A stretch of DNA of 64,000 nucleotides from Escherichia coli (GCA_902500125.1 GCA_902500125.1_4132.1); one strand, 5' to 3'. Positions 34,143 to 52,236 are shown, numbered from the stretch's first letter. Numbers and translations are program-made. Notes: generated by a model from the letters alone, not told the origin.

Positions 34143-34201
34143 TTGCAAACTAAGTTTAACGGCGTATAATGTTTTACATCGAGAGCGGGAACACTTCCCG
34201 C
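34143..34201 (+). promoter_or_regulatory. early-type cassette: A-tract/AGTACTTGCAA -35, TATAAT, 5' leader hairpin GCGGGAA-CAC-TTCCCGC
   Basis: AAAGTACTTGCAAACTAAGTTTAACGGCGTATAATGTTTTACATCGAGAGCGGGAACACTTCCCGC. Confidence 0.65.
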
Positions 34202-34225
34202 TACATATTACGAGAGATTAAAACG

Positions 34226-34588
34226 ATGGCGACTCAAATCACTAAAATTATTGCTAACCTGGTTAACTTTCGCGACGAGATGAAAGATCTTCCGGCAGAA
34301 ACGGTAAAAATTCACATTTCAGCTTATCGGGAACTTATTGCAATGTTACCGCTTAAGCGTGAACAATACGCCGCGACCGTGATGCTTGATGCGATGATCC
34401 ATAAGATGATCGCCAGTGATTTAACGATGGTTTATCAGTATATGGGCGAAAATTTCGCGGTGTATAGTAAACCAGTACCAGGAATGGAAAGTACAGAAGT
34501 ATTACACGGTTTAAATTTAAAACAAGATGCATGGGATAATATGCCTCGTTTCCTGGTATGGGCTGACAGTGGCAAGATTTACGAATAA
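34226..34588 (+). CDS. hypothetical early protein (120 aa)
   Basis: Start placed after the leader hairpin (MATQITKII); the ORF-track N-terminus would span the promoter. Confidence 0.55.
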   Translation: MATQITKIIANLVNFRDEMKDLPAETVKIHISAYRELIAMLPLKREQYAATVMLDAMIHKMIASDLTMVYQYMGENFAVYSKPVPGMESTEVLHGLNLKQDAWDNMPRFLVWADSGKIYE

Positions 34589-34602
34589 GTTTTAGAAAGT
34601 AC

Positions 34603-34659
34603 TTGCAAACTAAGTTTAAAAGCGTATAATGTTTTACATCAGGTGGGGAATAGTTCCCC
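34603..34659 (+). promoter_or_regulatory. early cassette promoter + leader hairpin GGGGAATAGTTCCCC
   Basis: TTGCAA-N16-TATAAT; hairpin 34645-34659. Confidence 0.65.
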
Positions 34660-34681
34660 ACTATATAAGAGGATTAAAAAA

Positions 34682-34921
34682 ATGGCTAAATCAAAAATGT
34701 TCTTAGGTCACAAAAACAAAACTCATTGGAATGTAAGCCTTTGGATTAATAACGATGAGTCATTGTACCGGTTGGCCCAGGACTTTATTAACGATAGCAC
34801 TAATCGCAATGATGCGGCCCGTCATATGATGTTATTTTTAGAACAGACTGGACAAGATAAAACACCGGACGGATTCAAATATAGCACTACTGCGATCCGT
34901 GCGGCTATGGTTGGAATGTAA
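34682..34921 (+). CDS. hypothetical early protein (79 aa); paralog of 36724..36963
   Basis: RBS AAGAGGATTAAAAAAATG; MAKSKMFLGHKNKTHWNVSLWINN shared with its paralog. Confidence 0.6.
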   Translation: MAKSKMFLGHKNKTHWNVSLWINNDESLYRLAQDFINDSTNRNDAARHMMLFLEQTGQDKTPDGFKYSTTAIRAAMVGM

Positions 34922-34947
34922 TAGAATAGAATTTATTTAAAGTACTA

Positions 34948-34972
34948 TTGCACGGGGATAGTACTTTATAAT
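34948..34972 (+). promoter_or_regulatory. putative weak promoter (TTGCAC ... TATAAT, short spacer)
   Basis: ATTGCACGGGGATAGTACTTTATAATAG; spacing is non-canonical. Confidence 0.3.
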
Positions 34973-35009
34973 AGTGTTTTATTCATACACCAACGATAAG
35001 GGCAACAGC

Positions 35010-35276
35010 ATGAATATTAAGTATTTTGCGACGCGTGAACAAGCTCGGATCGCCGCTCGCCAGGACGGGGCAACGTTTAAAGATATGGGCGTACAATCGG
35101 AACGTGGTAAACGTTGGGCCATTGTAAAGCGTAGTACAGCCAGATCATTACAGTACTGGTTAGCGGCGTTAAAAAGTCCCGATAGTGTATCGCGTCGAGT
35201 GGTAGAAATAAAGCTCGACCGAAAGGGCAACCGCGTGACCGTGTACCGTACTAAAAAGATTGCAGTACTTGAATAA
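35010..35276 (+). CDS. hypothetical early protein (88 aa); paralog of 46942..47337
   Basis: MNIKYFATREQARIAARQDGATFKDMG...DRKGNRVTVY shared with 46942. Confidence 0.55.
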   Translation: MNIKYFATREQARIAARQDGATFKDMGVQSERGKRWAIVKRSTARSLQYWLAALKSPDSVSRRVVEIKLDRKGNRVTVYRTKKIAVLE

Positions 35277-35284
35277 AAAGTACT

Positions 35285-35341
35285 TGCACCGTACTGATAA
35301 AAGCGTATAATGTTTTACATCGAGAGCGGGAACTCTTCCCG
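35285..35341 (+). promoter_or_regulatory. early cassette promoter + leader hairpin GCGGGAACTCTTCCCGC
   Basis: TTGCAC-N15-TATAAT; loop variant of cassette 1. Confidence 0.6.
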
Positions 35342-35363
35342 CCTATAACCTGGAGTAATGAAA

Positions 35364-35594
35364 ATGACTAATATGTATATGACTGAAGTTAAAACCGTAA
35401 AAGATACTACCACGAATAAAACTACTTACTTACAGCGGATCTGTGGTGTATGGCAACGTATCAGCAAATCAAAGTACTTTAAATTAACATCATATGCAAA
35501 CCGTTCGGATTCATTCAGTACTGAAATAAAAGGTAATAAAGTACACCAATACGGCACTTATTATTATTACAGCCTGGACGCGATTGCAGTATAA
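35364..35594 (+). CDS. hypothetical early protein (~76 aa)
   Basis: RBS CTGGAGTAATGAAAATG, second ATG chosen. Confidence 0.5.
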   Translation: MTNMYMTEVKTVKDTTTNKTTYLQRICGVWQRISKSKYFKLTSYANRSDSFSTEIKGNKVHQYGTYYYYSLDAIAV

Positions 35595-35624
35595 GCAGTT
35601 TACAAATCTTTACAATTGCCGGTA

Positions 35625-35653
35625 TTGACTTATTTTGTCAGTACTGGCATAAT
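35625..35653 (+). promoter_or_regulatory. promoter TTGACT-N17-CATAAT with no ORF for ~370 nt
   Basis: TTGACTTATTTTGTCAGTACTGGCATAATG; the transcript would cover intergenic elements A and B. Confidence 0.45.
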
Positions 35654-35843
35654 GTATTCATTGGCAGATAAGCCGTAGCCCATAGGGTGCGGGAGTGTAT
35701 CTATAGAAAAATTAGTTTAGTATAGTTACAATTGTGCACCCGGTGGGTTAGCTGTTGTCATGGGGTATATTATGCCAGTACTTGATAATGCTGTCAATAC
35801 TTTTTTTTAATATTCAGTACTGAAAACTATTTTTAAAAAGTAC

Positions 35844-35871
35844 TTGTAAACTATGTTTAAAGGCGTATAAT
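35844..35871 (+). promoter_or_regulatory. early promoter (TTGTAA-N16-TATAAT), upstream one of a tandem pair
   Basis: AAAAAGTACTTGTAAACTATGTTTAAAGGCGTATAATG. Confidence 0.6.
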
Positions 35872-35880
35872 GTTTTACAT

Positions 35881-35960
35881 CAGGACGGGGAACGAAATAA
35901 GTAACTTCCCGTTAAGTAGCCCAGGAGTAAGGCACACGAAAAACTCCCCTGATAAAATAG
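35881..35960 (+). ncRNA. ~80-nt structured leader/candidate small RNA between tandem promoters (copy 1)
   Basis: CAGGACGGGGAACGAAATAAGTAACTTCCCCGTTAAGTAGCCCAGGAGTAAGGCACACGAAAAACTCCCCTGAT; duplicated at 46021-46100 with stem-preserving changes. Confidence 0.35.
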
Positions 35961-35961
35961 T

Positions 35962-35989
35962 TTGACAATAGAAAGTAAAAGCGTATAAT
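35962..35989 (+). promoter_or_regulatory. promoter TTGACA-N16-TATAAT (downstream of the tandem pair)
   Basis: TTGACAATAGAAAGTAAAAGCGTATAATAC. Confidence 0.6.
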
Positions 35990-36021
35990 ACTTACATCAA
36001 CTACTGAATGAGGGTTACAAA

Positions 36022-36633
36022 ATGAAAACTATCACTACTACTACTTTTGTTATGGCTTTTTCTGAACTGAACGCAGAACAAAAAACGGCGGCTATCGAAC
36101 TGGTTCGGGATCGTGAGCGTTCATGTGAGGATAATTTCTTTGCTGAGGGCGTTATCGAGTACTATAAAGAAACAGTACTACCAGAATACGGCATAGATGA
36201 AGCTGAATTGCAATACAGTGGTTTTTGGTCGCAAGGTGACGGTGCATCAATCAGTACTAACCACGTTGACGCTGAGAAGTTTTTACGCAAGGTTAAGGCG
36301 TTAACGAAATATCGTTCAATCCGTCACCTGTTGAACGAGGATGATTTAGAAATGAGTGTAGAACGTTTCCAATCACGCTACGCACACGAAAACACGGTAG
36401 GCGGTTGCGTTGATACTCGCTACACTGATTTAACTGTAAAACAGGCGGCATTGGCTGAGGATCTGGAAAACTTACTGACTGATGCGATCCGTGAATTATC
36501 TCGTAAGTTGTACCGTGATTTAGAGAATGCATATGAGGATCAATTCACTACTGAAAACATTACTGCACTGATTGAGGGTAACGAATATCAATTCAATGTT
36601 ATTGATGGCGTAGTGGAATCAATCGAATATTAA
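36022..36633 (+). CDS. acidic hypothetical protein (203 aa)
   Basis: ORF track; RBS TGAGGGTTACAAAATG. Confidence 0.65.
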   Translation: MKTITTTTFVMAFSELNAEQKTAAIELVRDRERSCEDNFFAEGVIEYYKETVLPEYGIDEAELQYSGFWSQGDGASISTNHVDAEKFLRKVKALTKYRSIRHLLNEDDLEMSVERFQSRYAHENTVGGCVDTRYTDLTVKQAALAEDLENLLTDAIRELSRKLYRDLENAYEDQFTTENITALIEGNEYQFNVIDGVVESIEY

Positions 36634-36645
36634 TTTAAAAAGTAC

Positions 36646-36704
36646 TTGTAAACTAAGTTTAAAAGCGTATAATACTTTACATCAAGGCGGGGAGTGGTTC
36701 CCCG
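36646..36704 (+). promoter_or_regulatory. early cassette promoter + leader hairpin CGGGGAGTGGTTCCCCG
   Basis: TTGTAA-N16-TATAAT. Confidence 0.6.
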
Positions 36705-36723
36705 CTCAAACGAGGATTTAAAA

Positions 36724-36963
36724 ATGGCTAGTACTAAAACTTACAACGGACACAAAAACAAAACTCATTGGAATGTAAGCCTTTGGATTAATAACGGTGA
36801 GTCATTGTATCGGCTTGCTCAAAGTTGCATCGCACAAAGTAGAACTAAAGATATTGCTGCGGAATGTATGTACCGCAGATTAAAAGCCAACGGTACTACT
36901 ACAACGCCGGACGGCTTTAAGTATAGCACTACTGCGATCCGTGCTGCAATGGTTGGAATGTAA
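36724..36963 (+). CDS. hypothetical early protein (79 aa); paralog of 34682
   Basis: RBS ACGAGGATTTAAAAATG. Confidence 0.6.
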   Translation: MASTKTYNGHKNKTHWNVSLWINNGESLYRLAQSCIAQSRTKDIAAECMYRRLKANGTTTTPDGFKYSTTAIRAAMVGM

Positions 36964-37020
36964 TATTCAGTACTGAGATAATGGCGGGTAATAGTTCCCG
37001 CCTTTACTGAGGGTTATCTA

Positions 37021-37281
37021 ATGAGTAAAGTAATTAGCTATACAGCACTAAGCAAGTCATTATCTATTAGCCAGTGCACCGATGGTTATTGGCTTTATGA
37101 TGAAACGCGTGGAATGAATTTAGCTATGCGTGCAAAAACTGCTGAGGCGGCGTATCTTGAGGCACTGGAATACTACCAGGAACGTTTAACGGAAGTAGAA
37201 GAAGATTATAAAAGCCTCAAAGCGAAAGTAGATCATTTCGTCGGTCAATTCATCGAGGAAGACGACGATAAACAATACTGA
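37021..37281 (+). CDS. hypothetical protein (86 aa)
   Basis: Preceded by hairpin GGCGGGTAATAGTTCCCGCC and RBS TGAGGGTTATCTAATG. Confidence 0.55.
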   Translation: MSKVISYTALSKSLSISQCTDGYWLYDETRGMNLAMRAKTAEAAYLEALEYYQERLTEVEEDYKSLKAKVDHFVGQFIEEDDDKQY

Positions 37282-37291
37282 AAAAAAGTAC

Positions 37292-37350
37292 TTGCAATTA
37301 GTTTTCAGTACTGTATAATGGTTTACATCAAAGGGAGAAATGGTTCTCCC
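37292..37350 (+). promoter_or_regulatory. early cassette promoter + leader hairpin GGGAGAAATGGTTCTCCC
   Basis: TTGCAA-N16-TGTATAAT (extended -10). Confidence 0.65.
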
Positions 37351-37369
37351 TGGTAATGAGGAAAATAAA

Positions 37370-37591
37370 ATGGCTAATATCACTACTCTTTCCCAACTGG
37401 AAGCACTGGTGAAATCTATGCGGGAACATGCCGACAAAATCGGCGTACAAGATCCAGCCGTTTGCTTCTGCGACGAATTGAATGATGATACCCTGGTAAT
37501 AGCAGAAGTCCAGGACGTTTCTAACTATTCATCGCGTTACACTGGCGGCGTAGCAAATAAAGGCGACTTCTGTTTATACCTTACAAAATAA
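37370..37591 (+). CDS. hypothetical early protein (73 aa)
   Basis: RBS TGAGGAAAATAAAATG after the hairpin. Confidence 0.55.
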   Translation: MANITTLSQLEALVKSMREHADKIGVQDPAVCFCDELNDDTLVIAEVQDVSNYSSRYTGGVANKGDFCLYLTK

Positions 37592-37595
37592 CAAC

Positions 37596-37626
37596 GCGGG
37601 GAGATAATAACTCCCCGTTACTTTTT
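37596..37626 (+). terminator. rho-independent terminator (CGGGGAG-ATAATAA-CTCCCCG + T-tract)
   Basis: Hairpin followed by TTACTTTTT. Confidence 0.65.
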
Positions 37627-37768
37627 CAGTACTGAATCATTTAATAGACGGATCTCGGCACCCGGTGGGTTAGTGACTGTTTCGTCTTGATGTAGTAATT
37701 ATGCCAGTACTGGATGCACTTGTCAACAACTATTTTTCAAATACTTTTTATTAAAATACTTGCAATTA

Positions 37769-37825
37769 GTTTTTAAACGCGTATAATGTTTTGCATAGGG
37801 GGAGCGGTTCCCCCTGGTAACTAAG
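37769..37825 (+). promoter_or_regulatory. early cassette promoter + leader hairpin GGGGGAGCGGTTCCCCC
   Basis: TTGCAA-N16-TATAAT. Confidence 0.6.
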
Positions 37826-37835
37826 GAATAATAAA

Positions 37836-38072
37836 ATGCTTGAACAAATCAAATCAACGACTTCGAATGTAACGGGAACGGTAGCACACTTTACTAGTGA
37901 TGAATCGCGGGGCGTACCCTATTGTGCTGTACATGTAAACACTGATGGCAACTACTGGTTTACTGTTTACGGATCATATTCCTTTGGACGACCAGGGCAT
38001 CAAAAAATTCTGGATAAAGTACAGCCAACGGGTAAAAATATCACTGCTGAAATGTTTTATAAAAAATCATAA
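37836..38072 (+). CDS. hypothetical early protein (78 aa)
   Basis: RBS CTAAGGAATAATAAAATG. Confidence 0.6.
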   Translation: MLEQIKSTTSNVTGTVAHFTSDESRGVPYCAVHVNTDGNYWFTVYGSYSFGRPGHQKILDKVQPTGKNITAEMFYKKS

Positions 38073-38077
38073 AGTAC

Positions 38078-38136
38078 TTGATAATAGTTTTTAGTACTGT
38101 ATAATATTTTACATCGCAAGGGGGAGCGGTTCCCCC
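38078..38136 (+). promoter_or_regulatory. early cassette promoter (TTGATA-N16-TGTATAAT) + leader hairpin GGGGGAGCGGTTCCCCC
   Basis: Same hairpin sequence as the preceding cassette. Confidence 0.6.
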
Positions 38137-38156
38137 TGGTAACTAAGGATAATCAA

Positions 38157-38456
38157 ATGAAAATTGCAATCATCGCCCTGGCTTTATCTGTTTCCTCTTT
38201 CGCTGTTAATGCGTCATTAGATGTAAGTAGTGAAAAATTCATTCAGTGCACTGTTGCAATGACCGATGAAAGTACTGGCGAGATTGTATTAAAGGATCTG
38301 GAGATTCAGCCGGAAGCATTTAAAAACGGCCCGTTCCATGAAGAAGACGAAAACGGTAGCACGACAATTTATTATGATGCCAGTACTAAACGCGGTTCGG
38401 TCACTGTAATGGATACTGAGAAAGTAACGCATACCGGCGTTATTAATTGCCGTTGA
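38157..38456 (+). CDS. secreted early protein with signal peptide (99 aa)
   Basis: MKIAIIALALSVSSFAVNASLD; RBS CTAAGGATAATCAAATG. Confidence 0.6.
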   Translation: MKIAIIALALSVSSFAVNASLDVSSEKFIQCTVAMTDESTGEIVLKDLEIQPEAFKNGPFHEEDENGSTTIYYDASTKRGSVTVMDTEKVTHTGVINCR

Positions 38457-38477
38457 TAGATACTACGGGGTAACATC

Positions 38478-38708
38478 ATGACTAAGCGAATTGTTTTACT
38501 TAACGAAAGCAGTACTACACAACTACTTAACGCCGTGCATTATGATATTGAAACGAGCGTTAATCTTATCAGTACTGTAGTACTGTTGGACACTGGAAAG
38601 GTCGCCAATGATAAAGCGATTGCAGGTATATTAACGGATCTTGAGCCTGGTAGCAGTGCACCAATAACGTTAAATGGTAAAGTGTTTAATATTTTACTCA
38701 CTGATTAA
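38478..38708 (+). CDS. hypothetical protein (76 aa)
   Basis: ORF track; weak RBS; no promoter of its own. Confidence 0.5.
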   Translation: MTKRIVLLNESSTTQLLNAVHYDIETSVNLISTVVLLDTGKVANDKAIAGILTDLEPGSSAPITLNGKVFNILLTD

Positions 38709-38714
38709 GTACAT

Positions 38715-38737
38715 AGCCCACCTGGTGGGCTTTTTTG
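38715..38737 (+). terminator. rho-independent terminator (AGCCCACC-T-GGTGGGCT + T6)
   Basis: Perfect stem followed by TTTTTTG. Confidence 0.7.
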
Positions 38738-38790
38738 TTTTTGTAGTATCGTAGTACTGAGATACTTTGAAAATAGTTTTAAGAAAGTAG

Positions 38791-38819
38791 TTGACATTAC
38801 CGCAGAAAAGCGTAGAATG
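38791..38819 (+). promoter_or_regulatory. promoter TTGACA-N17-TAGAAT with ~110-nt structured leader
   Basis: Leader 38825-38925 is related to the 35881/46021 elements (ACGGGGA..AAGTAG..AGTAAG..ACGAAAAACT). Confidence 0.55.
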
Positions 38820-38941
38820 TATTACATCAAGACGGGGAGCACTAAGTAGACCGCCAGTAAGTCGAACGAAAAACTGGACACGTCGAGAAAACTTTGATAC
38901 ACTAATAAACGTAAACTAAACTTTAATTGAGGATTTATAAA

Positions 38942-39424
38942 ATGGCTAATGTAAAATCATTCATCAAAGCACTGGTAGCAAATGAAACTAACGTCGCGGC
39001 TGAGATCCTGGCTGAACTGGATAACGATACCATGAAAGCGGTACGCAATAATTTTAACATCGCGTACAGTACTGCGAAAGAACTACAAGCAAATAAAGCG
39101 GCAGAGATTGAAGCAGCGAAGGCGGCCCGTGAAGCAGAACTACAAGCAACAATTGAAAGTATCCAGGCGGCAGTAGTTGGGCTGGATCTGGAAGTAGTTA
39201 CCGAGATGGCACAAAAAGCCCTGGCGGTTAAGTACGGGGAAGATAAGCCGGAATCTAAGCCTAAAAAATGGATTCAAGAACGTGTAGCGGTAGTACTTGA
39301 TAACGGGGAAGAATATCTGATTCCGGTGCGTGGTAACTGCATTGCGGTAGTACTGGATGCTATCAAAGAAAGCGGATTGACTCGCGAGGAATGGATCGAA
39401 GCTCATCGCAAAGTTGAAGCATAA
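38942..39424 (+). CDS. Ala/Glu-rich coiled-coil early protein (161 aa)
   Basis: RBS ATTGAGGATTTATAAAATG. Confidence 0.6.
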   Translation: MANVKSFIKALVANETNVAAEILAELDNDTMKAVRNNFNIAYSTAKELQANKAAEIEAAKAAREAELQATIESIQAAVVGLDLEVVTEMAQKALAVKYGEDKPESKPKKWIQERVAVVLDNGEEYLIPVRGNCIAVVLDAIKESGLTREEWIEAHRKVEA

Positions 39425-39445
39425 CAATTAAAGTACTGAATCATT

Positions 39446-39472
39446 AGCCCACTTATACAGTGGGCTTTTTTG
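39446..39472 (+). terminator. rho-independent terminator (AGCCCACT-TATAC-AGTGGGCT + T6)
   Basis: Hairpin followed by TTTTTTG. Confidence 0.7.
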
Positions 39473-39625
39473 TGTTTATCGTTTACCAGGCCACCAGCAC
39501 CGCCTAGAAACGATTCTAACGTATTAAACTGTTTATCTGATGCATTGCCCTAGCTGGTGGCGTTAAAGTCGTTAGAATGCGATTGAGTGCGTTTAAAGTA
39601 TTTTGCAAAAAGTAATAAAAAGTAC

Positions 39626-39685
39626 TTGCACGATTAAGAGATTAGCGTATAATGTTTTACATCGAGAGGGGGAAACGGTTCTCCT
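39626..39685 (+). promoter_or_regulatory. early cassette promoter + leader hairpin GGGGGAAACGGTTCTCC
   Basis: TTGCAC-N16-TATAAT. Confidence 0.6.
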
Positions 39686-39708
39686 TCCAAATCAAAGGAA
39701 TCAAAACA

Positions 39709-39936
39709 ATGGCTATCGTAATCGCTTATGTAACTGGTACTACTGGCACTTCTTCTACTGTTGCTGTAATTACCAACAAGAAAGGTGCGGAATTACATTC
39801 TGCAATGGATACCTGGGCGGTAAATGAGTTCGGTCAGTGGGCAAGTGTAGCATATGTTGAAACCTATCAAGTGCCAACCATTAGCTTAACGGATCTCGGT
39901 GTAGATCGTATCCTTTGCCTGGATGAATTAAATTAA
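39709..39936 (+). CDS. hypothetical early protein (75 aa)
   Basis: MAIVIAYVTGTTGTSS; RBS AAAGGAATCAAAACAATG. Confidence 0.55.
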   Translation: MAIVIAYVTGTTGTSSTVAVITNKKGAELHSAMDTWAVNEFGQWASVAYVETYQVPTISLTDLGVDRILCLDELN

Positions 39937-39944
39937 AAAAGTAC

Positions 39945-40005
39945 TTGCAAAGTAAGTTGGATAAAGTATAATACATTACATCAAGGGGAGAAAATGGTTC
40001 TCCCC
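39945..40005 (+). promoter_or_regulatory. early cassette promoter + leader hairpin GGGGAGAAAATGGTTCTCCCC
   Basis: TTGCAA-N16-TATAAT. Confidence 0.6.
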
Positions 40006-40023
40006 ACTAAGAGGAAACTAAAA

Positions 40024-40167: not shown

Positions 40168-40186
40168 AATTATTATCACAGTACTA

Positions 40187-46159: not shown

Positions 46160-46435
46160 ATGCGGATTCTACTGACAGCTAACGAAATCGAACAAGTACT
46201 GACTACTAACCTGGAACAATGGAAACGTGATGCAGATATCCAGGCGGTTCAATGGCTTAACGATAAGTTAACGCCGGATGACTTAAGCAAGATTGTAGAT
46301 CCTCAATTCTACGAAGATATTCACGACACGGCTTTAAGCGTCGAGGATGTACTTGATAAGCATTACATTAATACCGATTTACAGGTTTACGGGCGTAAAA
46401 ACTTTATCACTATTCACGACATTTACAATACTTAA
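46160..46435 (+). CDS. hypothetical early protein (91 aa)
   Basis: RBS TAAGGAAACATTAAAATG. Confidence 0.6.
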   Translation: MRILLTANEIEQVLTTNLEQWKRDADIQAVQWLNDKLTPDDLSKIVDPQFYEDIHDTALSVEDVLDKHYINTDLQVYGRKNFITIHDIYNT

Positions 46436-46438
46436 GTA

Positions 46439-46497
46439 TTGACAAAGTATCTTAGTACTGTATAATAGTTTACATCAAGGCGGGGAAATGGTTCCCC
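46439..46497 (+). promoter_or_regulatory. early cassette promoter (TTGACA-N16-TGTATAAT) + hairpin CGGGGAAATGGTTCCCCT
   Basis: Consensus promoter. Confidence 0.65.
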
Positions 46498-46522
46498 TCC
46501 TAACAAAGAGAGAGAAATAAAA

Positions 46523-46846
46523 ATGGCTATGATCCTTACCCAGAAAGTGGAATTGAAAATTGTAACCTCCTTTGACATTAAAGTTAATCGCTGGACTGAT
46601 CGGAACGGCAATACTTACCACTCTTGCTACGTGTCTGCGTTAATTGGCGACCGCTGGGAAGACCTGGGACACGAAACCTTTACATACGGTTACGGTACGC
46701 AAGGCGAATACACTGGTTTGGAGATCATTAAAGAAACCGTTATAGGTTTCAACCCGAAAGAAAAAGTTATGCACCGCATCGAAAAAGAGATTAACAAAGA
46801 AATAACAGTTCGCTACTACGATGTAAAACGTAAGAAAGACATGTAA
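46523..46846 (+). CDS. hypothetical early protein (107 aa); paralog of 40543
   Basis: RBS AGAGAGAGAAATAAAAATG. Confidence 0.6.
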   Translation: MAMILTQKVELKIVTSFDIKVNRWTDRNGNTYHSCYVSALIGDRWEDLGHETFTYGYGTQGEYTGLEIIKETVIGFNPKEKVMHRIEKEINKEITVRYYDVKRKKDM

Positions 46847-46868
46847 TAGAATCCATTTAAAGTACTAT

Positions 46869-46897
46869 TTGACATTGCCCAGATAGTACTTTATAAT
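46869..46897 (+). promoter_or_regulatory. promoter TTGACA-N17-TATAAT
   Basis: TTGACATTGCCCAGATAGTACTTTATAAT. Confidence 0.6.
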
Positions 46898-46941
46898 AGA
46901 CTCTAACTTGTAGTACTAACTCAACTAATAGGATGTATACC

Positions 46942-47337
46942 ATGATTACTAAATTCTACGCTACCCGTGAAGCTGCCCGTATTGTTGCACGCGAGGAAGG
47001 AGCAGCATTTAAAGACATGGGAACGACAGCACCGAAAGGTCAACGCTGGGCCGTACAGTTCAAAGAAATCTCTGATATTGTGAATTCACCTGAGCCAGTA
47101 CTAACAGCAGCAGAACTAAAACGAGCGGATATGCTGGCGGCAATACTTGACGCACAAGATGAGTTTATCGCTGATTCTGATATCAAAGTACAGGTAAACC
47201 ACACCGCATGGACTCACGCGGATCACCTGGCAAACCTTAAGCGTCCAAGTGAACTGATTCGCAACCAGAAAGAGATCCGACATGATCGTAAGGGTAATCG
47301 TGTAACAGTATACAGTAAACGCCGCCAGGTTATCTAA
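46942..47337 (+). CDS. hypothetical protein (~131 aa); paralog of 35010
   Basis: MITKFYATREAARIVAREEGAAFKDMG...DRKGNRVTVY; RBS TAGGATGTATACCATG. Confidence 0.55.
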   Translation: MITKFYATREAARIVAREEGAAFKDMGTTAPKGQRWAVQFKEISDIVNSPEPVLTAAELKRADMLAAILDAQDEFIADSDIKVQVNHTAWTHADHLANLKRPSELIRNQKEIRHDRKGNRVTVYSKRRQVI

Positions 47338-47359
47338 TAACTTGCAGTACTAACAACAC

Positions 47360-47385
47360 GGCGGGATCAGTTCCCGCCTTTTTTA
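47360..47385 (+). terminator. rho-independent terminator (GGCGGGA-TCAG-TTCCCGCC + T6)
   Basis: Hairpin followed by TTTTTTA. Confidence 0.7.
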
Positions 47386-47398
47386 TAGGACAAACAAA

Positions 47399-47653
47399 AT
47401 GATTAAGGTTCAACTATATAAAGATAACATCTTACGGGTACACTATAAAGCACCGAAGAGAATCATCACAAAGGCCGTACAGCTTGCTAATGAGTTTATT
47501 AATGGTAACCTATTACCAAGGAAGTTAAGCAACGGGAAACTGCGTGTAATCGACGTGGACACTAACAACAGGATAGTAATCGAGAACACAGGAAAAATAA
47601 ACCTTTATGAGCATCAACAATACAATAAGAAAATAAAACTAATATCACGTTGA
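47399..47653 (+). CDS. hypothetical protein (84 aa)
   Basis: RBS ATAGGACAAACAAAATG. Confidence 0.55.
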   Translation: MIKVQLYKDNILRVHYKAPKRIITKAVQLANEFINGNLLPRKLSNGKLRVIDVDTNNRIVIENTGKINLYEHQQYNKKIKLISR

Positions 47654-47679
47654 CAGTACTCAAATGTTTTAGTATTATG
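47650..47679 (+). promoter_or_regulatory. promoter TTGACA-N18-TATTAT (duplicated block, copy 1)
   Basis: TTGACAGTACTCAAATGTTTTAGTATTATG. Confidence 0.5.
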
Positions 47680-47706
47680 TACACATACCAACACGGGAGA
47701 AACAAA

Positions 47707-47925
47707 ATGAAATTATCTAAAATCGAAAAGAAAACTATTGATGAAGCAGTTAAGCACGGTTATACCTTTCGTAATGATTCACATTTTACCAATTTTCAAC
47801 AGGGGTATCGTACTATTAAAAAACTAATTGACAAAGGTTTATTAGTTGAAGTCAATAATGGGAACGGTATCGAGTATCAGCCAACCCAAGACGCATTATC
47901 TTTAAAGAAATATAATATTATCTAA
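47707..47925 (+). CDS. hypothetical protein (72 aa)
   Basis: RBS ACGGGAGAAACAAAATG. Confidence 0.55.
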   Translation: MKLSKIEKKTIDEAVKHGYTFRNDSHFTNFQQGYRTIKKLIDKGLLVEVNNGNGIEYQPTQDALSLKKYNII

Positions 47926-47953
47926 TTGACAGTACTCAAATGTTTTAGTACTA
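47926..47953 (+). promoter_or_regulatory. promoter (duplicated block, copy 2)
   Basis: TTGACAGTACTCAAATGTTTTAGTACTAT. Confidence 0.45.
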
Positions 47954-47983
47954 TATGTACATACCAACACGGGGAAAAACAAA

Positions 47984-48226
47984 ATGATTACTTTAGAAAA
48001 ACGTATCAAAGAAACTACATCGCTGGTGGAATTGTTAACAGTACTCAAATGTAAAACAACACCATTCAGCACGCCGGACTTTATTAATATGGTTGATGTT
48101 AATGGTCGCTATCGTATCACGGTCGAACAAGGAGCGGCGAAAGTATTCAGTACTAAAAACACGAAGGAAGTGATCCACGCCGTTAATGTTAAAAAAGTAG
48201 TTGCCATTGATAGTAAAGTACTGTAA
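47984..48226 (+). CDS. hypothetical protein (80 aa)
   Basis: RBS ACGGGGAAAAACAAAATG. Confidence 0.55.
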   Translation: MITLEKRIKETTSLVELLTVLKCKTTPFSTPDFINMVDVNGRYRITVEQGAAKVFSTKNTKEVIHAVNVKKVVAIDSKVL

Positions 48227-48257
48227 TATAGTTTCATTAACTCAAGGAGAACATGCA

Positions 48258-48842
48258 ATGCGTAATTATACTAAATTCATCCGTACACTGTCAGAAATGG
48301 AAACCAACAAAGAGATCCTTTCAGCTTGTCGGTTAGCTGGCCTGGAGATCATCGGTGCTGGTTCTTCCCGTATAGTTTTCGCTTTAAATGATCGGTTAGT
48401 GATTAAGGTCGCGAATTGTGATGCGGGTGTAGAACAAAATGAAACTGAATGTAAGGTATGGAATTTTTTAGACTATGACCGCCCTCAGTTGAAACAGTAC
48501 TTTGCAAAGGTGCATATGCATTTATGCGATCCTGATAATATGTTTATCGTTATGGATCGGTTGAGTACTGCAAGCAAAGGTAGTGTGAAGCACGTAAACG
48601 CGTGCAATGAATTAAAGTACAATATTAAACGTAATGCAATCGAACGCCAGCACCGCTTTGCTGATGCACTACAACACGTCGATGATACATTATCAACACT
48701 AACGATAAGAGATATCAGAAAACAGAATATCGGCCAGGATCGTAATGGCCTTATTAAAGTACTTGATTACGGTTTAACCTGCAATATCTGGAATCAGTAC
48801 TATAAAAAGCGTGATGTGGCAGCAAGTAAGGTAACACGATAA
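48258..48842 (+). CDS. small protein-kinase-like protein (~194 aa)
   Basis: RBS AAGGAGAACATGCAATG; IIGAGSSRIVF (G-loop), VIKVA, IRDIRKQNIG (catalytic-loop-like), KVLDYG (DFG-like). Confidence 0.6.
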   Translation: MRNYTKFIRTLSEMETNKEILSACRLAGLEIIGAGSSRIVFALNDRLVIKVANCDAGVEQNETECKVWNFLDYDRPQLKQYFAKVHMHLCDPDNMFIVMDRLSTASKGSVKHVNACNELKYNIKRNAIERQHRFADALQHVDDTLSTLTIRDIRKQNIGQDRNGLIKVLDYGLTCNIWNQYYKKRDVAASKVTR

Positions 48843-48855
48843 AAAAGATTAAAAA

Positions 48856-48890
48856 AGGGATTGACTCCGGTCAGTCCCTTTGCTATTATA
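48856..48890 (+). terminator. class T2 terminator/promoter element
   Basis: AAAAAAGGGATTGACTCCGGTCAGTCCCTTTGCTATTATATA. Confidence 0.65.
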
Positions 48891-48983
48891 TATCCATTGA
48901 GAGATAACTCACTGACCCATAGGGTGCGGAAGTGTATCTATTATATAAGTATTCAGTACTGAAAACTATTTTTTAAAAAGTAC

Positions 48984-49046
48984 TTGCATTGTACTTAGAA
49001 TCAAGTATAATGTTTTATATCGAGAGGGGGAAATGGTTCTCCCTGG
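48984..49046 (+). promoter_or_regulatory. early cassette promoter + hairpin GGGGGAAATGGTTCTCCC
   Basis: TTGCAT-N16-TATAAT; preceded by element A. Confidence 0.6.
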
Positions 49047-49065
49047 TATATTAAGGAATAAAATC

Positions 49066-49287
49066 ATGACTACAATGACTTGCATTTACGCTTCCAATCG
49101 TCTGAATGATGCGGCCTTTAATGTTGATTCAGAATATCAATGTTATCGGGATGAAAATAAAAAAGTTTTTGTAGTTGATAATAATGGTTTCCATATTGAA
49201 TTACAATCCGGCTTCACTGGTGTTGATGGTAAATCAGTATGGGGCGTACAGGATGATAAAGGTACATATCATTTTAAACGTAATTAA
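49066..49287 (+). CDS. hypothetical early protein (73 aa)
   Basis: RBS TTAAGGAATAAAATCATG. Confidence 0.55.
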   Translation: MTTMTCIYASNRLNDAAFNVDSEYQCYRDENKKVFVVDNNGFHIELQSGFTGVDGKSVWGVQDDKGTYHFKRN

Positions 49288-49291
49288 GTAT

Positions 49292-49353
49292 TTGACAAAG
49301 TATCTTAGTACTGTATAATAGTTTACATCAAGGGGAGAATAGTTCTCCCCGAT
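49292..49353 (+). promoter_or_regulatory. early cassette promoter (TTGACA-N16-TGTATAAT) + hairpin GGGGAGAATAGTTCTCCCC
   Basis: Consensus promoter. Confidence 0.65.
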
Positions 49354-49371
49354 ACTAAAAGGAATAAAATC

Positions 49372-49776
49372 ATGACTACTACTAATCTTGCTCGGAATAT
49401 CGCCAACGATAAAAATCATGCTGCAATGGTCGCTGGTTACATTGAAGCTATGCAATTCAGTACTGTACATAATGATAACGGCGATTACCTGGAAGATTAT
49501 GAGTTATCTGATGAAGCACGTCAAGCGGCGGTGATTGCATGTTCTCGCTTCATTGAGAAACACGGTAATGATCTGGAAGTAGTTCGCGGTATGTTTATTG
49601 ATTACGGTTATGAGCAAGCTGGTCATGATCTGTTCCTTACCCGCGAAGGTCACGGAACTGGTTTTTGGGATCGTGGTTTAGGTCACTATGGCGATGTATT
49701 CACGAAGTACTGCGAAGAAATCAACGTTTGCGATCCCTATGTAGGCGATGATAACTTAATCTATATGGGCGAATAA
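49372..49776 (+). CDS. hypothetical early protein (134 aa)
   Basis: RBS AAAAGGAATAAAATCATG. Confidence 0.6.
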   Translation: MTTTNLARNIANDKNHAAMVAGYIEAMQFSTVHNDNGDYLEDYELSDEARQAAVIACSRFIEKHGNDLEVVRGMFIDYGYEQAGHDLFLTREGHGTGFWDRGLGHYGDVFTKYCEEINVCDPYVGDDNLIYMGE

Positions 49777-49782
49777 AAGTAT

Positions 49783-49843
49783 TTGACAAAGTATATCAGT
49801 ACTGTATAATAGTTTACATCAAGGGGAGAATAGTTCTCCCCAA
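49783..49843 (+). promoter_or_regulatory. early cassette promoter (TTGACA-N16-TGTATAAT) + hairpin GGGGAGAATAGTTCTCCCC
   Basis: Near-duplicate of the 49292 cassette. Confidence 0.65.
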
Positions 49844-49863
49844 TACTAAAAGGAAACAAAATT

Positions 49864-50136
49864 ATGTCCAGCTACTCCGCTACTATGATCATTAAAGATA
49901 TGAACGGTAATCCTACTTCTGCTGGTGGATCATTTGGAAATATTAACTTAGATGGGCGGTTATCCATGCAATCAGCCATCGATGCAGCGAAAGAAGTTTT
50001 TAAGAATGAATGTACTGTTAGTAAGCTGGATTATATGGGTTTCGCTATCGAGAAAACTACTCGTTTTGTGAACTACAAAAATCCACTGATGATTGATACT
50101 AACCTGAAAGCTAACGAAGTGGGGTACTTATTATGA
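49864..50136 (+). CDS. hypothetical early protein (90 aa)
   Basis: RBS AAAAGGAAACAAAATTATG. Confidence 0.6.
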   Translation: MSSYSATMIIKDMNGNPTSAGGSFGNINLDGRLSMQSAIDAAKEVFKNECTVSKLDYMGFAIEKTTRFVNYKNPLMIDTNLKANEVGYLL

Positions 50137-50324
50137 CAGTAGAAGAAGTAAAAAAAGTACTGGCAGTACTACGATATCATAATCATTGCAAGGTGAAGAA
50201 TGATCCTGATTATCTTGATTCATCCCTGGAGGAAGACACCTTGAACGCTATAAGCCATATGCAGACATTAGCAAAGCGTATGACTGAAAAGAACATGCCG
50301 GACTATATCGGAAATAAAATTTAA
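50133..50324 (+). CDS. hypothetical protein (63 aa)
   Basis: ATGA-coupled. Confidence 0.5.
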   Translation: MTVEEVKKVLAVLRYHNHCKVKNDPDYLDSSLEEDTLNAISHMQTLAKRMTEKNMPDYIGNKI

Positions 50325-50331
50325 AAAGTAC

Positions 50332-50393
50332 TTGCATTGTAGTTAGATTAACGTATAATGTTTTATATCGAGAGGGGGAAATGGTTTCCCCTC
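50332..50393 (+). promoter_or_regulatory. early cassette promoter + hairpin GGGGGAAATGGTTTCCCC
   Basis: TTGCAT-N16-TATAAT. Confidence 0.6.
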
Positions 50394-50411
50394 AAGTCCA
50401 GGAGATACACA

Positions 50412-50675
50412 ATGAACACTATCGAAATCACTATCAATGCACACGTATACGACAACGTAGTACTGCAAACTACTATGACCGCTAATGATACCAGTACTTT
50501 GCGGAATACTGTTATTAGTGCCGTATGTGCTGCAATCGGTGATGTATCCCTGGAAAATGCAGAACATATCAACAACGGTTTCACTATGTGCAAGCGTGAT
50601 AACGCAAAACATATCATCGTGGAAGGTTACGGCGGTGTAGAATTTAATGTTTATATGAAAAAAGTACTTGCATAA
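50412..50675 (+). CDS. hypothetical early protein (87 aa)
   Basis: RBS CCAGGAGATACACAATG. Confidence 0.55.
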   Translation: MNTIEITINAHVYDNVVLQTTMTANDTSTLRNTVISAVCAAIGDVSLENAEHINNGFTMCKRDNAKHIIVEGYGGVEFNVYMKKVLA

Positions 50676-50724
50676 TAACTAAAACAAAGTATAATGTTTT
50701 GCATAGGGGGAGATATCCTCCCCC
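50668..50724 (+). promoter_or_regulatory. early cassette promoter + hairpin GGGGGAGATATCCTCCCCC
   Basis: TTGCAT-N16-TATAAT; overlaps the 3' end of the upstream gene. Confidence 0.55.
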
Positions 50725-50742
50725 ACTAAAAGGAGTAATAAA

Positions 50743-50967
50743 ATGGCTAACTTTGATGAACTGATGCGGGAAGTAGCTAACCTGGCAGAAGAGAAGAAAT
50801 CATTCGATTCTATCTATAACACCGCTCACCGTGATTCAGTACTGGCATGTAACCAGGATCAAAAAGATGAACTAATCGCCACCTATCATGAAGCATGGAA
50901 GTACTACCGACAATGGGAGAAAGAAGAAAGTGAGTCTACCATTGACGGCCTCAATAATCTAATCTAA
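50743..50967 (+). CDS. hypothetical early protein (74 aa)
   Basis: RBS AAAGGAGTAATAAAATG. Confidence 0.6.
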   Translation: MANFDELMREVANLAEEKKSFDSIYNTAHRDSVLACNQDQKDELIATYHEAWKYYRQWEKEESESTIDGLNNLI

Positions 50968-50986
50968 AAGTTTTATTTCAGTACTA

Positions 50987-51016
50987 TTGACATAGCTTGA
51001 TAGTACTGATGTAATA
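50987..51016 (+). promoter_or_regulatory. class-2 promoter (AGTACTATTGACATAGCTTGATAGTACTGATGTAAT)
   Basis: TTGACA-N17-TGTAAT. Confidence 0.5.
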
Positions 51017-51043
51017 ACTTTACTAACTACAAGGGGAAACATA

Positions 51044-51301
51044 ATGGATCAGTTCACACAATATCGGGTAAATCCTCAAGCTATGGCCTACGTAGAAGAC
51101 CATAAAACGTTACCAGTACTGCAACCAGTTAAAGGCCATATCTATCGTGCAATGTCGTGGTGTGCGGCCCAGGATGGCTATAAAACCGTAGCCGTTGGTA
51201 TGTACTGCGGTAATGGTGAATGGTTTGATCCAAATAATCCGGTATCCATTGACAGTACTGAAAAAATGAAATGGGCCGACTACATCGAAGATATTTCATA
51301 A
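51044..51301 (+). CDS. hypothetical protein (85 aa)
   Basis: RBS AAGGGGAAACATAATG. Confidence 0.55.
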   Translation: MDQFTQYRVNPQAMAYVEDHKTLPVLQPVKGHIYRAMSWCAAQDGYKTVAVGMYCGNGEWFDPNNPVSIDSTEKMKWADYIEDIS

Positions 51302-51308
51302 AAACTAT

Positions 51309-51370
51309 TTGACAGTACTAACCAGTAATGTATAATGTTTTACATAGAGCGGGGGAATAGTTCTCCCGCC
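51309..51370 (+). promoter_or_regulatory. early cassette promoter (TTGACA-N16-TATAAT) + hairpin GCGGGGGAATAGTTCTCCCGCC
   Basis: Consensus promoter. Confidence 0.65.
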
Positions 51371-51391
51371 AATAGTTTGGAGTAAAACATT

Positions 51392-51592
51392 ATGTCTATC
51401 GCTATCGCCCTGGTTGAAGTACTGAAAGAAGCTAAAGCCAACCAGATCGACGTAAAGATCCAGGAACTACAAAACGGCTTAATCGGCTGTACTTGTACCG
51501 CTGGTGGAGCGGCAGACTATCGAGAACACGAATCACTCGAATCACTGGTTCGGTATCTTACCATGATCGTTGATGATTGGAGAATCATCTAA
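51392..51592 (+). CDS. hypothetical early protein (66 aa)
   Basis: RBS TTGGAGTAAAACATTATG. Confidence 0.55.
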   Translation: MSIAIALVEVLKEAKANQIDVKIQELQNGLIGCTCTAGGAADYREHESLESLVRYLTMIVDDWRII

Positions 51593-51608
51593 CAAAAAAG
51601 AATAAAAA

Positions 51609-51640
51609 AGGGATTGACTCCGGTCAGTCCCTTTGCTATT
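51609..51640 (+). terminator. class T2 terminator/promoter element
   Basis: AAAAAGGGATTGACTCCGGTCAGTCCCTTTGCTATTATATACGCATAG. Confidence 0.65.
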
Positions 51641-51754
51641 ATATACGCATAGACAAAAACTAGCCCACAGGGTGCATAGGTGTATCCAAAATATATAGTT
51701 AATAACGGTGAGTAACTATCTGCTGGTGGAACTAAAACTATTAATAAAAAAGTA

Positions 51755-51783
51755 TTGACAAAGTATATCAGTACTGCAATAAT
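51755..51783 (+). promoter_or_regulatory. promoter TTGACA-N16-CAATAAT
   Basis: AAAAAGTATTGACAAAGTATATCAGTACTGCAATAATG. Confidence 0.45.
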
Positions 51784-51836
51784 GTATCTCGTAGGGCGGC
51801 AATGGTGCGACGGCCCACAAAGTTAGGAGATTCAAA

Positions 51837-52169
51837 ATGACTACTTCAATCGCTATCGTTAAAGCTTTCATCCGTACTAATGTTTCCTCTGTATTCATCG
51901 ACGGCCTCGACCGTAACGTAGAATACTCAATCATTATCGCACAAACGGCAAACGGTTCTCGGTACATCCTGAATGATAGTGAAGCAAATCACTACTACTT
52001 CACTAAAGCCACTGGCTTTAAACGCATCGATGCTGATGTAGTATACGCTAAGATGAATAAGCTGGTAGACAAGATTAACGCGAAAGGTACTATCGATTTA
52101 CAGTACTGGACCGAAACCGATCCAGAATATGGATCTCACCGCTACCTGAATCCAGGTATTAAAATGTAA
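51837..52169 (+). CDS. hypothetical protein (110 aa)
   Basis: RBS TTAGGAGATTCAAAATG. Confidence 0.6.
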   Translation: MTTSIAIVKAFIRTNVSSVFIDGLDRNVEYSIIIAQTANGSRYILNDSEANHYYFTKATGFKRIDADVVYAKMNKLVDKINAKGTIDLQYWTETDPEYGSHRYLNPGIKM

Positions 52170-52176
52170 AAAGTAC

Positions 52177-52236
52177 TTGCATAGTACTTAGAATCAAGTA
52201 TAATGTTTTACATAGAGAGGGGGAAATGGTTCTCCC
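52177..52236 (+). promoter_or_regulatory. early cassette promoter + hairpin GAGGGGGAAATGGTTCTCCCTC
   Basis: TTGCAT-N16-TATAAT. Confidence 0.6.

Follow-up and report, generated by a model that had tools for sequence, protein, structure and literature searches.

Covarying leader hairpins in repeated early-type expression cassettes of a predicted jumbo coliphage terminal repeat

Why would a phage place the same kind of hairpin at the start of one short leader after another? The question is raised by a 64-kb stretch of DNA (hereafter the window; 64,000 nucleotides, numbered from its first letter) recorded under Escherichia coli, in which an array of small genes between 34143 and 52236 is preceded by repeated cassettes: a promoter, a hairpin in the 5' leader, a ribosome-binding site (RBS), and a start codon. 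We found that the leader hairpin is real and is selected as a plus-strand RNA structure. The region that holds it is a set of ~50 one-gene expression modules in the early region of what appears to be a phage direct terminal repeat (DTR), and the hairpin most likely serves to protect and insulate early messages.

By reading every intergenic space and folding every leader, we catalogued 24 full cassettes, each with promoter, leader hairpin, Shine-Dalgarno (SD) sequence, and ATG, all on the plus strand within 34143-52261 (-35 hexamers from 34143 to 52177). One further cassette, at 11857, is the only one of like build outside the DTR equivalent.

34143..34228, plus strand: cassette 1; -35 TTGCAA, -10 TATAAT, hairpin 34184-34202, ATG 34226 (120 aa)
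34603..34684, plus strand: cassette 2; hairpin 34642-34662 (GGTGGGGAA tag TTCCCCACT), ATG 34682 (79 aa)
35284..35366, plus strand: cassette 3; hairpin 35323-35344, ATG 35364 (76 aa)
36646..36726, plus strand: cassette 4; hairpin 36686-36706, ATG 36724 (79 aa)
37292..37372, plus strand: cassette 5; hairpin 37332-37351, ATG 37370 (73 aa)
37760..37838, plus strand: cassette 6; hairpin 37796-37816, ATG 37836 (78 aa)
38078..38159, plus strand: cassette 7; hairpin 38116-38140, ATG 38157 (99 aa)
39626..39711, plus strand: cassette 8; hairpin 39666-39687 (two G.U pairs), ATG 39709 (75 aa)
39945..40026, plus strand: cassette 9; hairpin 39985-40005, ATG 40024 (47 aa)
41767..41848, plus strand: cassette 10; hairpin 41807-41826, ATG 41846 (48 aa)
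41996..42076, plus strand: cassette 11; hairpin 42036-42055, ATG 42074 (50 aa)
42589..42670, plus strand: cassette 12; hairpin 42630-42648, ATG 42668 (113 aa)
43024..43108, plus strand: cassette 13; -35 TTGACA, hairpin 43064-43083, ATG 43106 (70 aa)
44867..44945, plus strand: cassette 14; weaker promoter TTGCAT-17-TATAGT, hairpin 44907-44925, ATG 44943 (62 aa)
45140..45219, plus strand: cassette 15; hairpin 45180-45199, ATG 45217 (70 aa)
45437..45518, plus strand: cassette 16; hairpin 45475-45496, ATG 45516 (57 aa)
46439..46525, plus strand: cassette 17; hairpin 46478-46501, ATG 46523 (107 aa)
48984..49068, plus strand: cassette 18; hairpin 49025-49044, ATG 49066 (73 aa)
49292..49374, plus strand: cassette 19; hairpin 49332-49350, ATG 49372 (134 aa)
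49783..49866, plus strand: cassette 20; hairpin 49823-49841, ATG 49864 (90 aa)
50332..50414, plus strand: cassette 21; hairpin 50372-50393, ATG 50412 (87 aa)
50668..50745, plus strand: cassette 22; hairpin 50706-50724 (GGGGGAG atatc CTCCCCC), ATG 50743 (74 aa)
51309..51394, plus strand: cassette 23; hairpin 51349-51369, ATG 51392 (66 aa)
52177..52261, plus strand: cassette 24, the last; hairpin 52213-52241, ATG 52259 (133 aa)
11857..11934, plus strand: cassette outside the DTR equivalent; different, covarying stem GGGGATGA acttc TCATCCCT, ATG 11932 (184 aa)

Motif and promoter scans gave a similar picture. The word AAAAGTACTTGCAA, which covers the upstream and -35 region, matched 65 times with at most three mismatches, compared to 13.8 ± 3.3 times in shuffled sequence, and its good matches were nearly all on the plus strand in 34-52 kb. 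The pattern TATAAT-N1-2-TTTWCAT occurred in 19 strict copies, all on the plus strand and each followed by a G-rich/C-rich hairpin, an SD sequence, and an ATG. An independent scan for the sigma70 consensus returned 35 sites of at least 10/12 on the plus strand and 7 on the minus strand; altogether, we estimate ~36-40 plus-strand promoters in 19 kb. An earlier note on this DNA had described about 30 stereotyped early expression cassettes ahead of nearly every small gene. The scans bear out the stereotyped cassettes, of early sigma70 type; the count of 24 (plus the one at 11857) makes the earlier figure a modest overcount, and the hairpin is optional: about 12 more genes in the region have a similar promoter followed by an unstructured leader without a hairpin. 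These hairpin-less promoters lie at 34922, 40168, 40462, 43319, 44444, 46847, 47654, 47926, and 50968, with second promoters at 35962 and 46099. Two leaders have the hairpin and lack a recognizable promoter.

36983..37023, plus strand: hairpin (GGCGGG taatagtt CCCGCC), SD, and ATG without a canonical promoter; hairpin end 18 nt from the ATG
47360..47401, plus strand: hairpin followed by T6 (a terminator-like variant), then SD and ATG, without a clear promoter; from the fold and terminator scan

The promoters share an A/T-rich upstream region, a -35 hexamer of TTGCAA or TTGACA, a 16-nt spacer (17 in a few), and TATAAT, and they come in two flavours, ...GCGTATAAT and ...CAGTACTGTATAAT. With +1 predicted as the A eight nt after the -10 hexamer, the RNAs would start with AUCAAG, AUCGAGAG, AUGAAG, or AUAGAG. 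Across the 24 cassettes, the hairpin begins 8-13 nt after the -10 hexamer, leaving 1-6 unpaired nt from the predicted +1 (mode 5), and its 3' end lies 16-23 nt upstream of the ATG. The stems are 7-9 bp as a rule, with loops of 3-5 nt and folding free energies (dG) of -10.6 to -15.9 kcal/mol. In the minimum free energy fold of the full leader, all sequence 3' of the hairpin, including the SD and ATG, was unpaired in 23 of the 24 cassettes. This stretch is A-rich; A makes up 51% of the 8 nt following the hairpin, where T runs do not exceed 2. The 24 copies have thirteen different loops, with UAG and AUGG dominant.

Three simple roles for the hairpin were considered and rejected. We judged on sequence grounds that the hairpins are not intrinsic terminators, as a U-tract is missing after all 24 and a terminator scan of the region called none of them. 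That scan did place canonical terminators elsewhere, at 37596, 38715, 39446, 47360, 42463, 45847, 48854, and 51607, including AAAGGG..CCCTTT elements. The G-rich 5' arm is SD-like, as the earlier note had pointed out, and a switch can be imagined in which the C-rich 3' arm pairs with the true SD once the 5' arm is removed. However, leaders truncated at the loop folded weakly (mean dG -3.4; mean z -0.5 relative to shuffles), with z < -2 clear in only two to three cassettes, so no convincing switch emerged and we rejected it as a general mechanism. Finally, an ATG in the loop is in frame with the gene in four cassettes, and in three a 9-codon open reading frame (ORF) starts at ACATGAAGGGG. We judged this alternative start or mini-ORF to be coincidental, given that it is not general and that the GGAG-to-ATG spacing is only 2 nt.

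To determine whether the two arms of the hairpin evolve together, a plain alignment was of little use: MAFFT, run from the -10 hexamer to the ATG, left the hairpins out of register, and RNAalifold gave a weak 6-pair consensus. We replaced these with an alignment-free arm-swap test and a loop-anchored alignment. In the arm-swap test, the 5' half of one of 22 distinct window hairpins was joined to the 3' half of another. The native hairpins averaged -12.05 kcal/mol compared to -9.19 ± 0.35 kcal/mol for the permuted ones (z = -8.1), and 0 of 20000 permutations reached the native value. The loop-anchored alignment comprised 36 distinct hairpins from the window, three Asteriusvirus relatives, Klebsiella phage RaK2, and Justusliebigvirus muut, with nine nt taken on each side of the predicted loop. 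Here, standard pairs filled 91% of cells compared to 73.9 ± 1.2 when shuffled, and double changes occurred at all 9 stem levels, in 56 cells compared to 16.1 ± 3.8. The covariation score was 0.576, compared to 0.227 ± 0.02 for shuffled arms (0 of 500 reached it) and 0.14-0.26 when the partner was slid by 1-3 columns, although these figures are not probabilities, given an alignment built around predicted loops and copies that are paralogues of one another. The top of the stem (GAA...UUC) read A-U, A-U in 27-34 of the 36.

Pair types in this alignment were asymmetric, with 19 G.U pairs against 2 U.G, and the plus strand folded better than its complement (Wilcoxon p = 0.009). This indicates that the selected structure is a plus-sense RNA rather than a symmetric DNA site. 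The earlier note had claimed that the arms covary, always with the G-rich arm 5' and the C-rich arm 3', and had named absence of covariation in a formal test as an outcome that would speak against it. Both formal tests were positive, and the purine arm came first in every cassette. The structure is also kept between relatives. Gaps within the G and C runs spoiled a column-wise comparison of orthologues, and we therefore refolded orthologous leaders instead. At orthologous positions in five relatives, another hairpin of the family was often found (for example, at 38100, 39648, 44891, and 50354), and all leader variants folded at a dG of -8.4 or better, excluding phage CMSTMSU and two non-homologous replacements. 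In CMSTMSU (MH494197; locus L010), the hairpin G and C runs were systematically 1-2 bases shorter and ORFs were fragmented, which is probably homopolymer sequencing error rather than biology.

Where do these cassettes sit in a phage genome? On nucleotide identity, the window is DNA of an Asteriusvirus (PBECO4/121Q-like) jumbo coliphage. Both 34-44 kb and 44-64 kb showed patchy 91-96% identity to ~350 kb Asteriusvirus jumbo coliphages, including SP27, PBECO4, 121Q, phAPEC6, G17, and Sharanji. The annotated DTR of a further relative, vB_Ec-M-J (record positions 1-21525), maps onto the window with position 1 at 32398 and position 21525 at 53092, and identity at both boundaries is 94-96%. The boundaries in the source phage are thus placed by homology.

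32398..53092, plus strand: DTR equivalent, ~20.7 kb, by homology to the annotated DTR of vB_Ec-M-J

The cassette array (34143-52236) would accordingly fill the terminal repeat from the end of its head, a 1.7 kb stretch that is non-coding and rich in repeats and is followed by ~50 small plus-strand genes; past ~53.1 kb, small genes overlap one another and lack individual promoters. Independent records of 366-384 kb, at least seven in number, begin ~1.5-3 kb ahead of the first cassette, and in G17, the region is present near both ends of the 370.8 kb record. A DTR of 20,668 bp was determined by PhageTerm for Sharanji (PMC11895373). The recognizable products of the region are a DksA/TraR zinc finger and a GNAT acetyltransferase, a content that fits an early region, and the remainder are of unknown function. 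Searches at gathering thresholds detected no tRNAs or Rfam families in the whole window, and a permissive Rfam scan of 32.3-53.3 kb gave two chance-level matches only (E ≤ 1).

The literature places early genes in such repeats. In the related phage PA5oct, RNA-seq found high early transcription for many genes of the 39 kb terminal repeat (PMC7318152), and for phage CBB, predicted promoters of RpoD-like type with UP elements lie in both the early region and the terminal repeat (PMC5259590). From the sigma70 consensus promoters together with the PA5oct data, the array is probably transcribed early by host RNA polymerase. The earlier suggestion that the architecture resembles host-takeover modules fares well, as the array maps onto a relative's DTR.

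The cassette is not confined to close relatives. An 87 nt cassette query matched 66 phage records. In Klebsiella phage RaK2 (Alcyoneusvirus), the layout is the same with a different stem, GGGGATACA tag TGTATCCCC, and the unit reads TTGACA-N16-CAGTACTGTATAAT-GTATTACATCAA-AGGGGATACA tag TGTATCCCCT, then SD and ATG. When 12 kb of RaK2 was compared to the window, the nucleotide matches were mostly regulatory cassettes rather than genes. The architecture also occurs in unrelated ~146 kb Justusliebigvirus phages. One of these, muut (Stephanstirmvirinae), carries four such units within 1.5 kb. Three of the units have quite different promoters, and still the hairpin stands ~11 nt after the -10 hexamer, with stems that covary (GGCGGTGG/CCACCGCC). 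Four muut modules match the window modules at 40.6, 46.0, 34.6, and 39.7 kb with 68-93% identity and in changed order. When IMG/VR was scanned with a strict pattern, the cassette turned up on five contigs only (~109-366 kb), including 121Q and a ~149 kb contig. In the literature searched, no paper describes this leader hairpin in Rak2-like phages.

To follow gene turnover, we chained alignments of six relatives, as separate records, to the window over the DTR region. Within the repeat, these gave 49 indel or replacement junctions, 35 of them distinct. Junction ends were intergenic in 56 of 70 cases although intergenic sequence makes up 34% of bases (binomial P = 3e-15), and most of the remaining ends lay no more than ~25 nt from a stop codon. 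Breakpoints of gene-sized indels between relatives fall inside cassettes, and fourteen junctions had 44-105 bp present on both sides, equal to one cassette length. On the comparative evidence, whole genes are gained, lost, and swapped at cassettes, among relatives as well as with unrelated phages. The ~85 bp cassette, recurring as it does ahead of most genes, would offer the homology for these events. A cassette-bounded indel signature of this kind has been described for the promoter-early stem-loop cassettes (PeSLs) of T4-type phages (PMC2839356, PMC4122927).

We therefore asked what single reading accounts for these observations, and the one we favor, at a rough probability of 50%, is that the cassettes are sigma70 early expression modules whose 5' hairpin stabilizes and insulates the mRNA, and that they double as recombination linkers in the manner of PeSLs. 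Host RNA polymerase would use the near-consensus sigma70 promoters as the DNA enters. Each of the 24 modules would then yield a transcript with ~5 purine-rich unpaired nt, a 7-9 bp hairpin, an A-rich unpaired stretch, an SD, and an ATG. In cis, the hairpin could hinder 5'-end-dependent attack, that is, RppH action followed by RNase E entry or scanning from the 5' end. By pairing the G-rich and C-rich segments of the leader with each other, it could also keep the A-rich RBS open, in transcripts from its own promoter and in read-through transcripts alike. The purine arm may come first because a purine-rich initial transcribed sequence, as in T5 N25, favors escape from very strong promoters. Such a role has precedent, as 5' stem-loops stabilize E. 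coli mRNAs in the ompA and T7 gene 10 leaders, and structures in the 5' untranslated region (UTR) impede RNase E scanning. The earlier note had listed a stabilizer, a processing site, and a regulator-binding site as candidate roles.

Several observations weigh against this explanation. The +1 is predicted from the -10 hexamer rather than mapped, and the ~5 unpaired 5' nt that follow from it are at or beyond the limit of ≤2-4 reported for classical 5'-terminal stabilizers. The ~12 genes of the same region that have similar promoters and no hairpin indicate that the hairpin is not needed for expression. The spacing from hairpin to ATG is as tight as that from hairpin to +1 and is kept in the promoter-less hairpin at 36983, so that a translation-related or protein-binding role fits equally well. 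Moreover, the stem top GAA...UUC and the loops UAG and AUGG often recur, which could reflect sequence-specific recognition or shared ancestry.

The last two points lead to a different explanation, possible but unlikely in our view, in which a trans-acting factor, either a phage early/middle protein or a host RNA-binding protein, binds the hairpin and controls the early genes as one regulon. The factor might be a translational repressor, a guide for a nuclease that shuts off early mRNAs, or the recognition partner of a nut/boxB-like antitermination signal. The one fixed place of the hairpin in 24 early leaders, the recurrent stem top, the dominant loops, and the invariable purine-first order are all in keeping with it, and GGAGAAUAG, present in several stems, resembles the T4 RegB consensus GG*AGRAYARAA. 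However, RegB does not cut GGAG buried in secondary structure (PMC3014915), and no candidate binding protein was identified. The loops also vary widely (CAC, CUC, CGG, AAAC, ACAUC, AUAUC, and others), every stem level varies with compensation, and RaK2 and one muut copy replace even the stem top, a pattern typical of selection for structure rather than sequence. A more elaborate proposal, which we regard as doubtful, would make the hairpin a tag that unites ~24 early mRNAs into one post-transcriptional regulon, with a phage factor timing the early-to-middle switch and a cassette that is mobile between unrelated families. In that case, the factor could be a nuclease, translational repressor, or antiterminator, and the families could be the Rak2-like jumbo phages and the Stephanstirmvirinae. 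We hold in similarly low regard the idea that the hairpin provides insulation of the PeSL type, either attenuating upstream read-through or protecting a 3' end after cleavage in the A-rich stretch, while the gene's own promoter sets its output. With no terminator between the cassettes, read-through transcripts must cross the hairpins, and the A-rich single strand would be a plausible RNase E target. In RB49/phi1, G-run/C-run stem-loops by sigma70 early promoters cut downstream lacZ about as much as rrnB T1 (PMC2839356). Yet none of the 24 hairpins has a U-tract or is terminator-like, and if termination occurred at +6 to +25, the cassette's own promoter would lose its transcripts too. The region also has separate canonical terminators, including composites set between -35 and -10 hexamers (42455, 45847, 48854, 51607), which suggests that the phage uses a different element where termination is wanted.

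The arms are inverted repeats that can fold on both strands, and indel junctions lie in the cassettes, so the palindrome might instead act in DNA, bound as an operator by a dimeric protein, extruded as a cruciform, or used for site-specific recombination that makes cassettes mobile, with the RNA hairpin as a by-product. This is very improbable. G.U pairs, tolerated 19:2 in the plus sense, are A.C mismatches on the other strand, which folds less well, and the element always lies on the coding strand downstream of +1. Its stem sequence varies, whereas an operator would conserve sequence, and the junction overlaps extend over the entire 44-105 bp cassette, which is what ordinary homologous recombination would produce, rather than a site in the hairpin. 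Least credible of all, to the point that we give it almost no weight, is a functionless hairpin, a piece of one ancestral leader that traveled with the promoter when it was copied. In favor of this, the cassettes are clear paralogues that are exchanged as units, and many genes do without the hairpin. Still, the window holds 22 distinct hairpins whose arms match their own partners far better than those of other copies, compensatory double changes occur at every stem level, and RaK2 and muut preserve the structure although their stems and promoters differ.

Other repeated elements were seen alongside the cassettes. The terminator composites have true PeSL geometry and are separate from the 24 cassettes; their stem, A3G3-loop-C3T3, is the type reported for phage nt-1, and the composite also occurs in RaK2 (L007 5199-5334).

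42455-42500, 45847-45890, 48854-48895, 51607-51650, and 14037-14075: composite with strong terminator AAAGGGATTGAC tccg GTCAGTCCCTTT between -35 TTGACT and -10 TATTAT(ATA)
33513, 35679, 35736, 37658, 42522, 43918, 45904, 48916, and 51664, on both strands: CCCAYMGGGTGC motif
35879-35962 and 46018-46099, also L006 2078-2160: conserved ~80 nt structured leader after a full promoter

The motif CCCAYMGGGTGC followed by RNRRRTGTAWCTAT occurred 9 times, with 0.25 expected. A promoter precedes every copy by ~20-25 nt, no ORF comes after the copy, and there are two facing pairs (35679+/35736- and around 37658). These sites are candidate short non-coding transcripts; the PA5oct terminal repeat produces two highly expressed non-coding RNAs (PMC7318152). 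The ~80 nt leader has a closing stem, AUCAGG/CCUGAU, around two hairpins, with a second promoter directly after it, so that genes 36022 and 46160 have tandem promoters. It is 90-93% identical in the unrelated phage muut, and because the copies are so similar, it offers no covariation.

The hexamer AGTACT occurred 278 times in the whole window compared to 21.6 expected from base composition, and CAGTACTG occurred 65 times compared to 0.7; both are densest in 28000-52000. AGTACT stands directly before many -10 hexamers and just before the -35, and is ~13-fold enriched inside coding regions too. Every Rak2-like locus examined showed the enrichment, RaK2 and the IMG/VR contigs among them, whereas muut did not, and no paper in the literature searched describes the motif in Rak2-like phages. 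GCGC was absent from the window (0 compared to ~64 expected in 1-64000), while CGCG and GGCC were near expectation. It was likewise absent from every Rak2-like locus examined (L003, L005, L007, L008, L009, L012, L013, L017) and in excess in muut. Among 10 larger ORFs in 1-31 kb, Pfam detected no GCGC-specific nuclease, only an HNH/NUMOD4 homing endonuclease and an RCC1-like domain.

Two neighboring stretches complete the description. The head of the DTR equivalent (32398-34140; 1.7 kb) has no convincing gene and is filled with repeats, among them a 53 nt unit in tandem at 33949-34054, many copies of CAGTACTG, and, at 33150-33330, successive TGGATGGCTAGA-like units. Packaging or terminus signals, or an origin, could reside in this head. 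Adjoining the repeat, 18500-32000 is a block of minus-strand genes with negative GC skew that holds a tandem family of ~370-410 aa proteins, annotated in relatives as RCC1-like "regulator of chromosome condensation". One copy matches the Pfam RCC1-like domain below the family cut-off.

If the favored reading is true, the first minutes of infection by Rak2-like jumbo phages would run from a terminal repeat of plug-in units, each with promoter, 5' hairpin, RBS, and gene. The leader would then be a case of 5'-UTR structure governing mRNA fate over a whole gene class, and the unit would supply a compact natural part with which genes could be expressed strongly, and insulated, in E. coli. Recombination at cassettes would provide a concrete mechanism for quick turnover of early genes, including those with anti-host and anti-defense functions, and the modules held in common with unrelated 146 kb phages suggest a shared pool of early genes among coliphages. 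For annotation, the cassette reliably marks the true start codons of very small genes and the extent of the terminal repeat in collapsed assemblies.

Set beside known systems, the leader hairpins have something in common with the lambda nut sites (boxA plus boxB) and the HK022 put RNAs, which are also promoter-proximal RNA hairpins in early phage transcripts. However, boxB is recognized via a conserved GNRA-like pentaloop and occurs once or twice per genome, whereas here there are 24 copies with varied loops, no boxA-like partner was identified, and Rfam gave no match; no N-like protein was identified either, though no search for one was made. The hairpin 1 of the ompA leader and the T7 gene 10 leader GGGAGACCACAACGGUUUCCC are closer in form, being stable hairpins near the 5' end of a short leader that is followed by an unstructured RBS, and T7 gene 10 (GGGAGA...UCUCCC) has the same sequence flavor. 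Those hairpins start 0-4 nt from the 5' end, compared to ~5 unpaired nt predicted here, and each is a single leader rather than a 24-copy family. As for the array as a whole, the SPO1 host-takeover module and the T5 pre-early region likewise combine many small genes of unknown function with strong host-type promoters in a terminal repeat. The 39 kb DTR of PA5oct, whose genes are transcribed early (PMC7318152), and that of CBB (PMC5259590) have a terminal-repeat gene array of this kind. For none of these four, in the literature searched, has a stereotyped leader hairpin been described.

The closest described system is the PeSLs of RB49/phi1, PST, and nt-1 (PMC2839356, PMC4122927). They too are short units repeated between genes, in which an AT-rich upstream region and a near-consensus sigma70 early promoter are combined with a G-run/C-run stem-loop, an SD, and an ATG. 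They lie ahead of small genes of unknown function where the genome is plastic, and they bound the indels between close relatives. By contrast, the PeSL stem-loop varies in position across five subclasses (upstream of the -35, overlapping the -35 or -10, between them, or just before the start), lies outside the transcript of its own promoter, and was shown to act as a terminator or attenuator. The hairpin described here keeps one fixed site in the predicted transcribed leader (+2 to +7 through ~+25), has no U-tract, and covaries as RNA. Because the position and terminator features of PeSLs are lacking, as judged from sequence with a predicted +1, we do not file these cassettes as PeSLs and instead regard them as a new variant of the known promoter-stem-loop cassettes.

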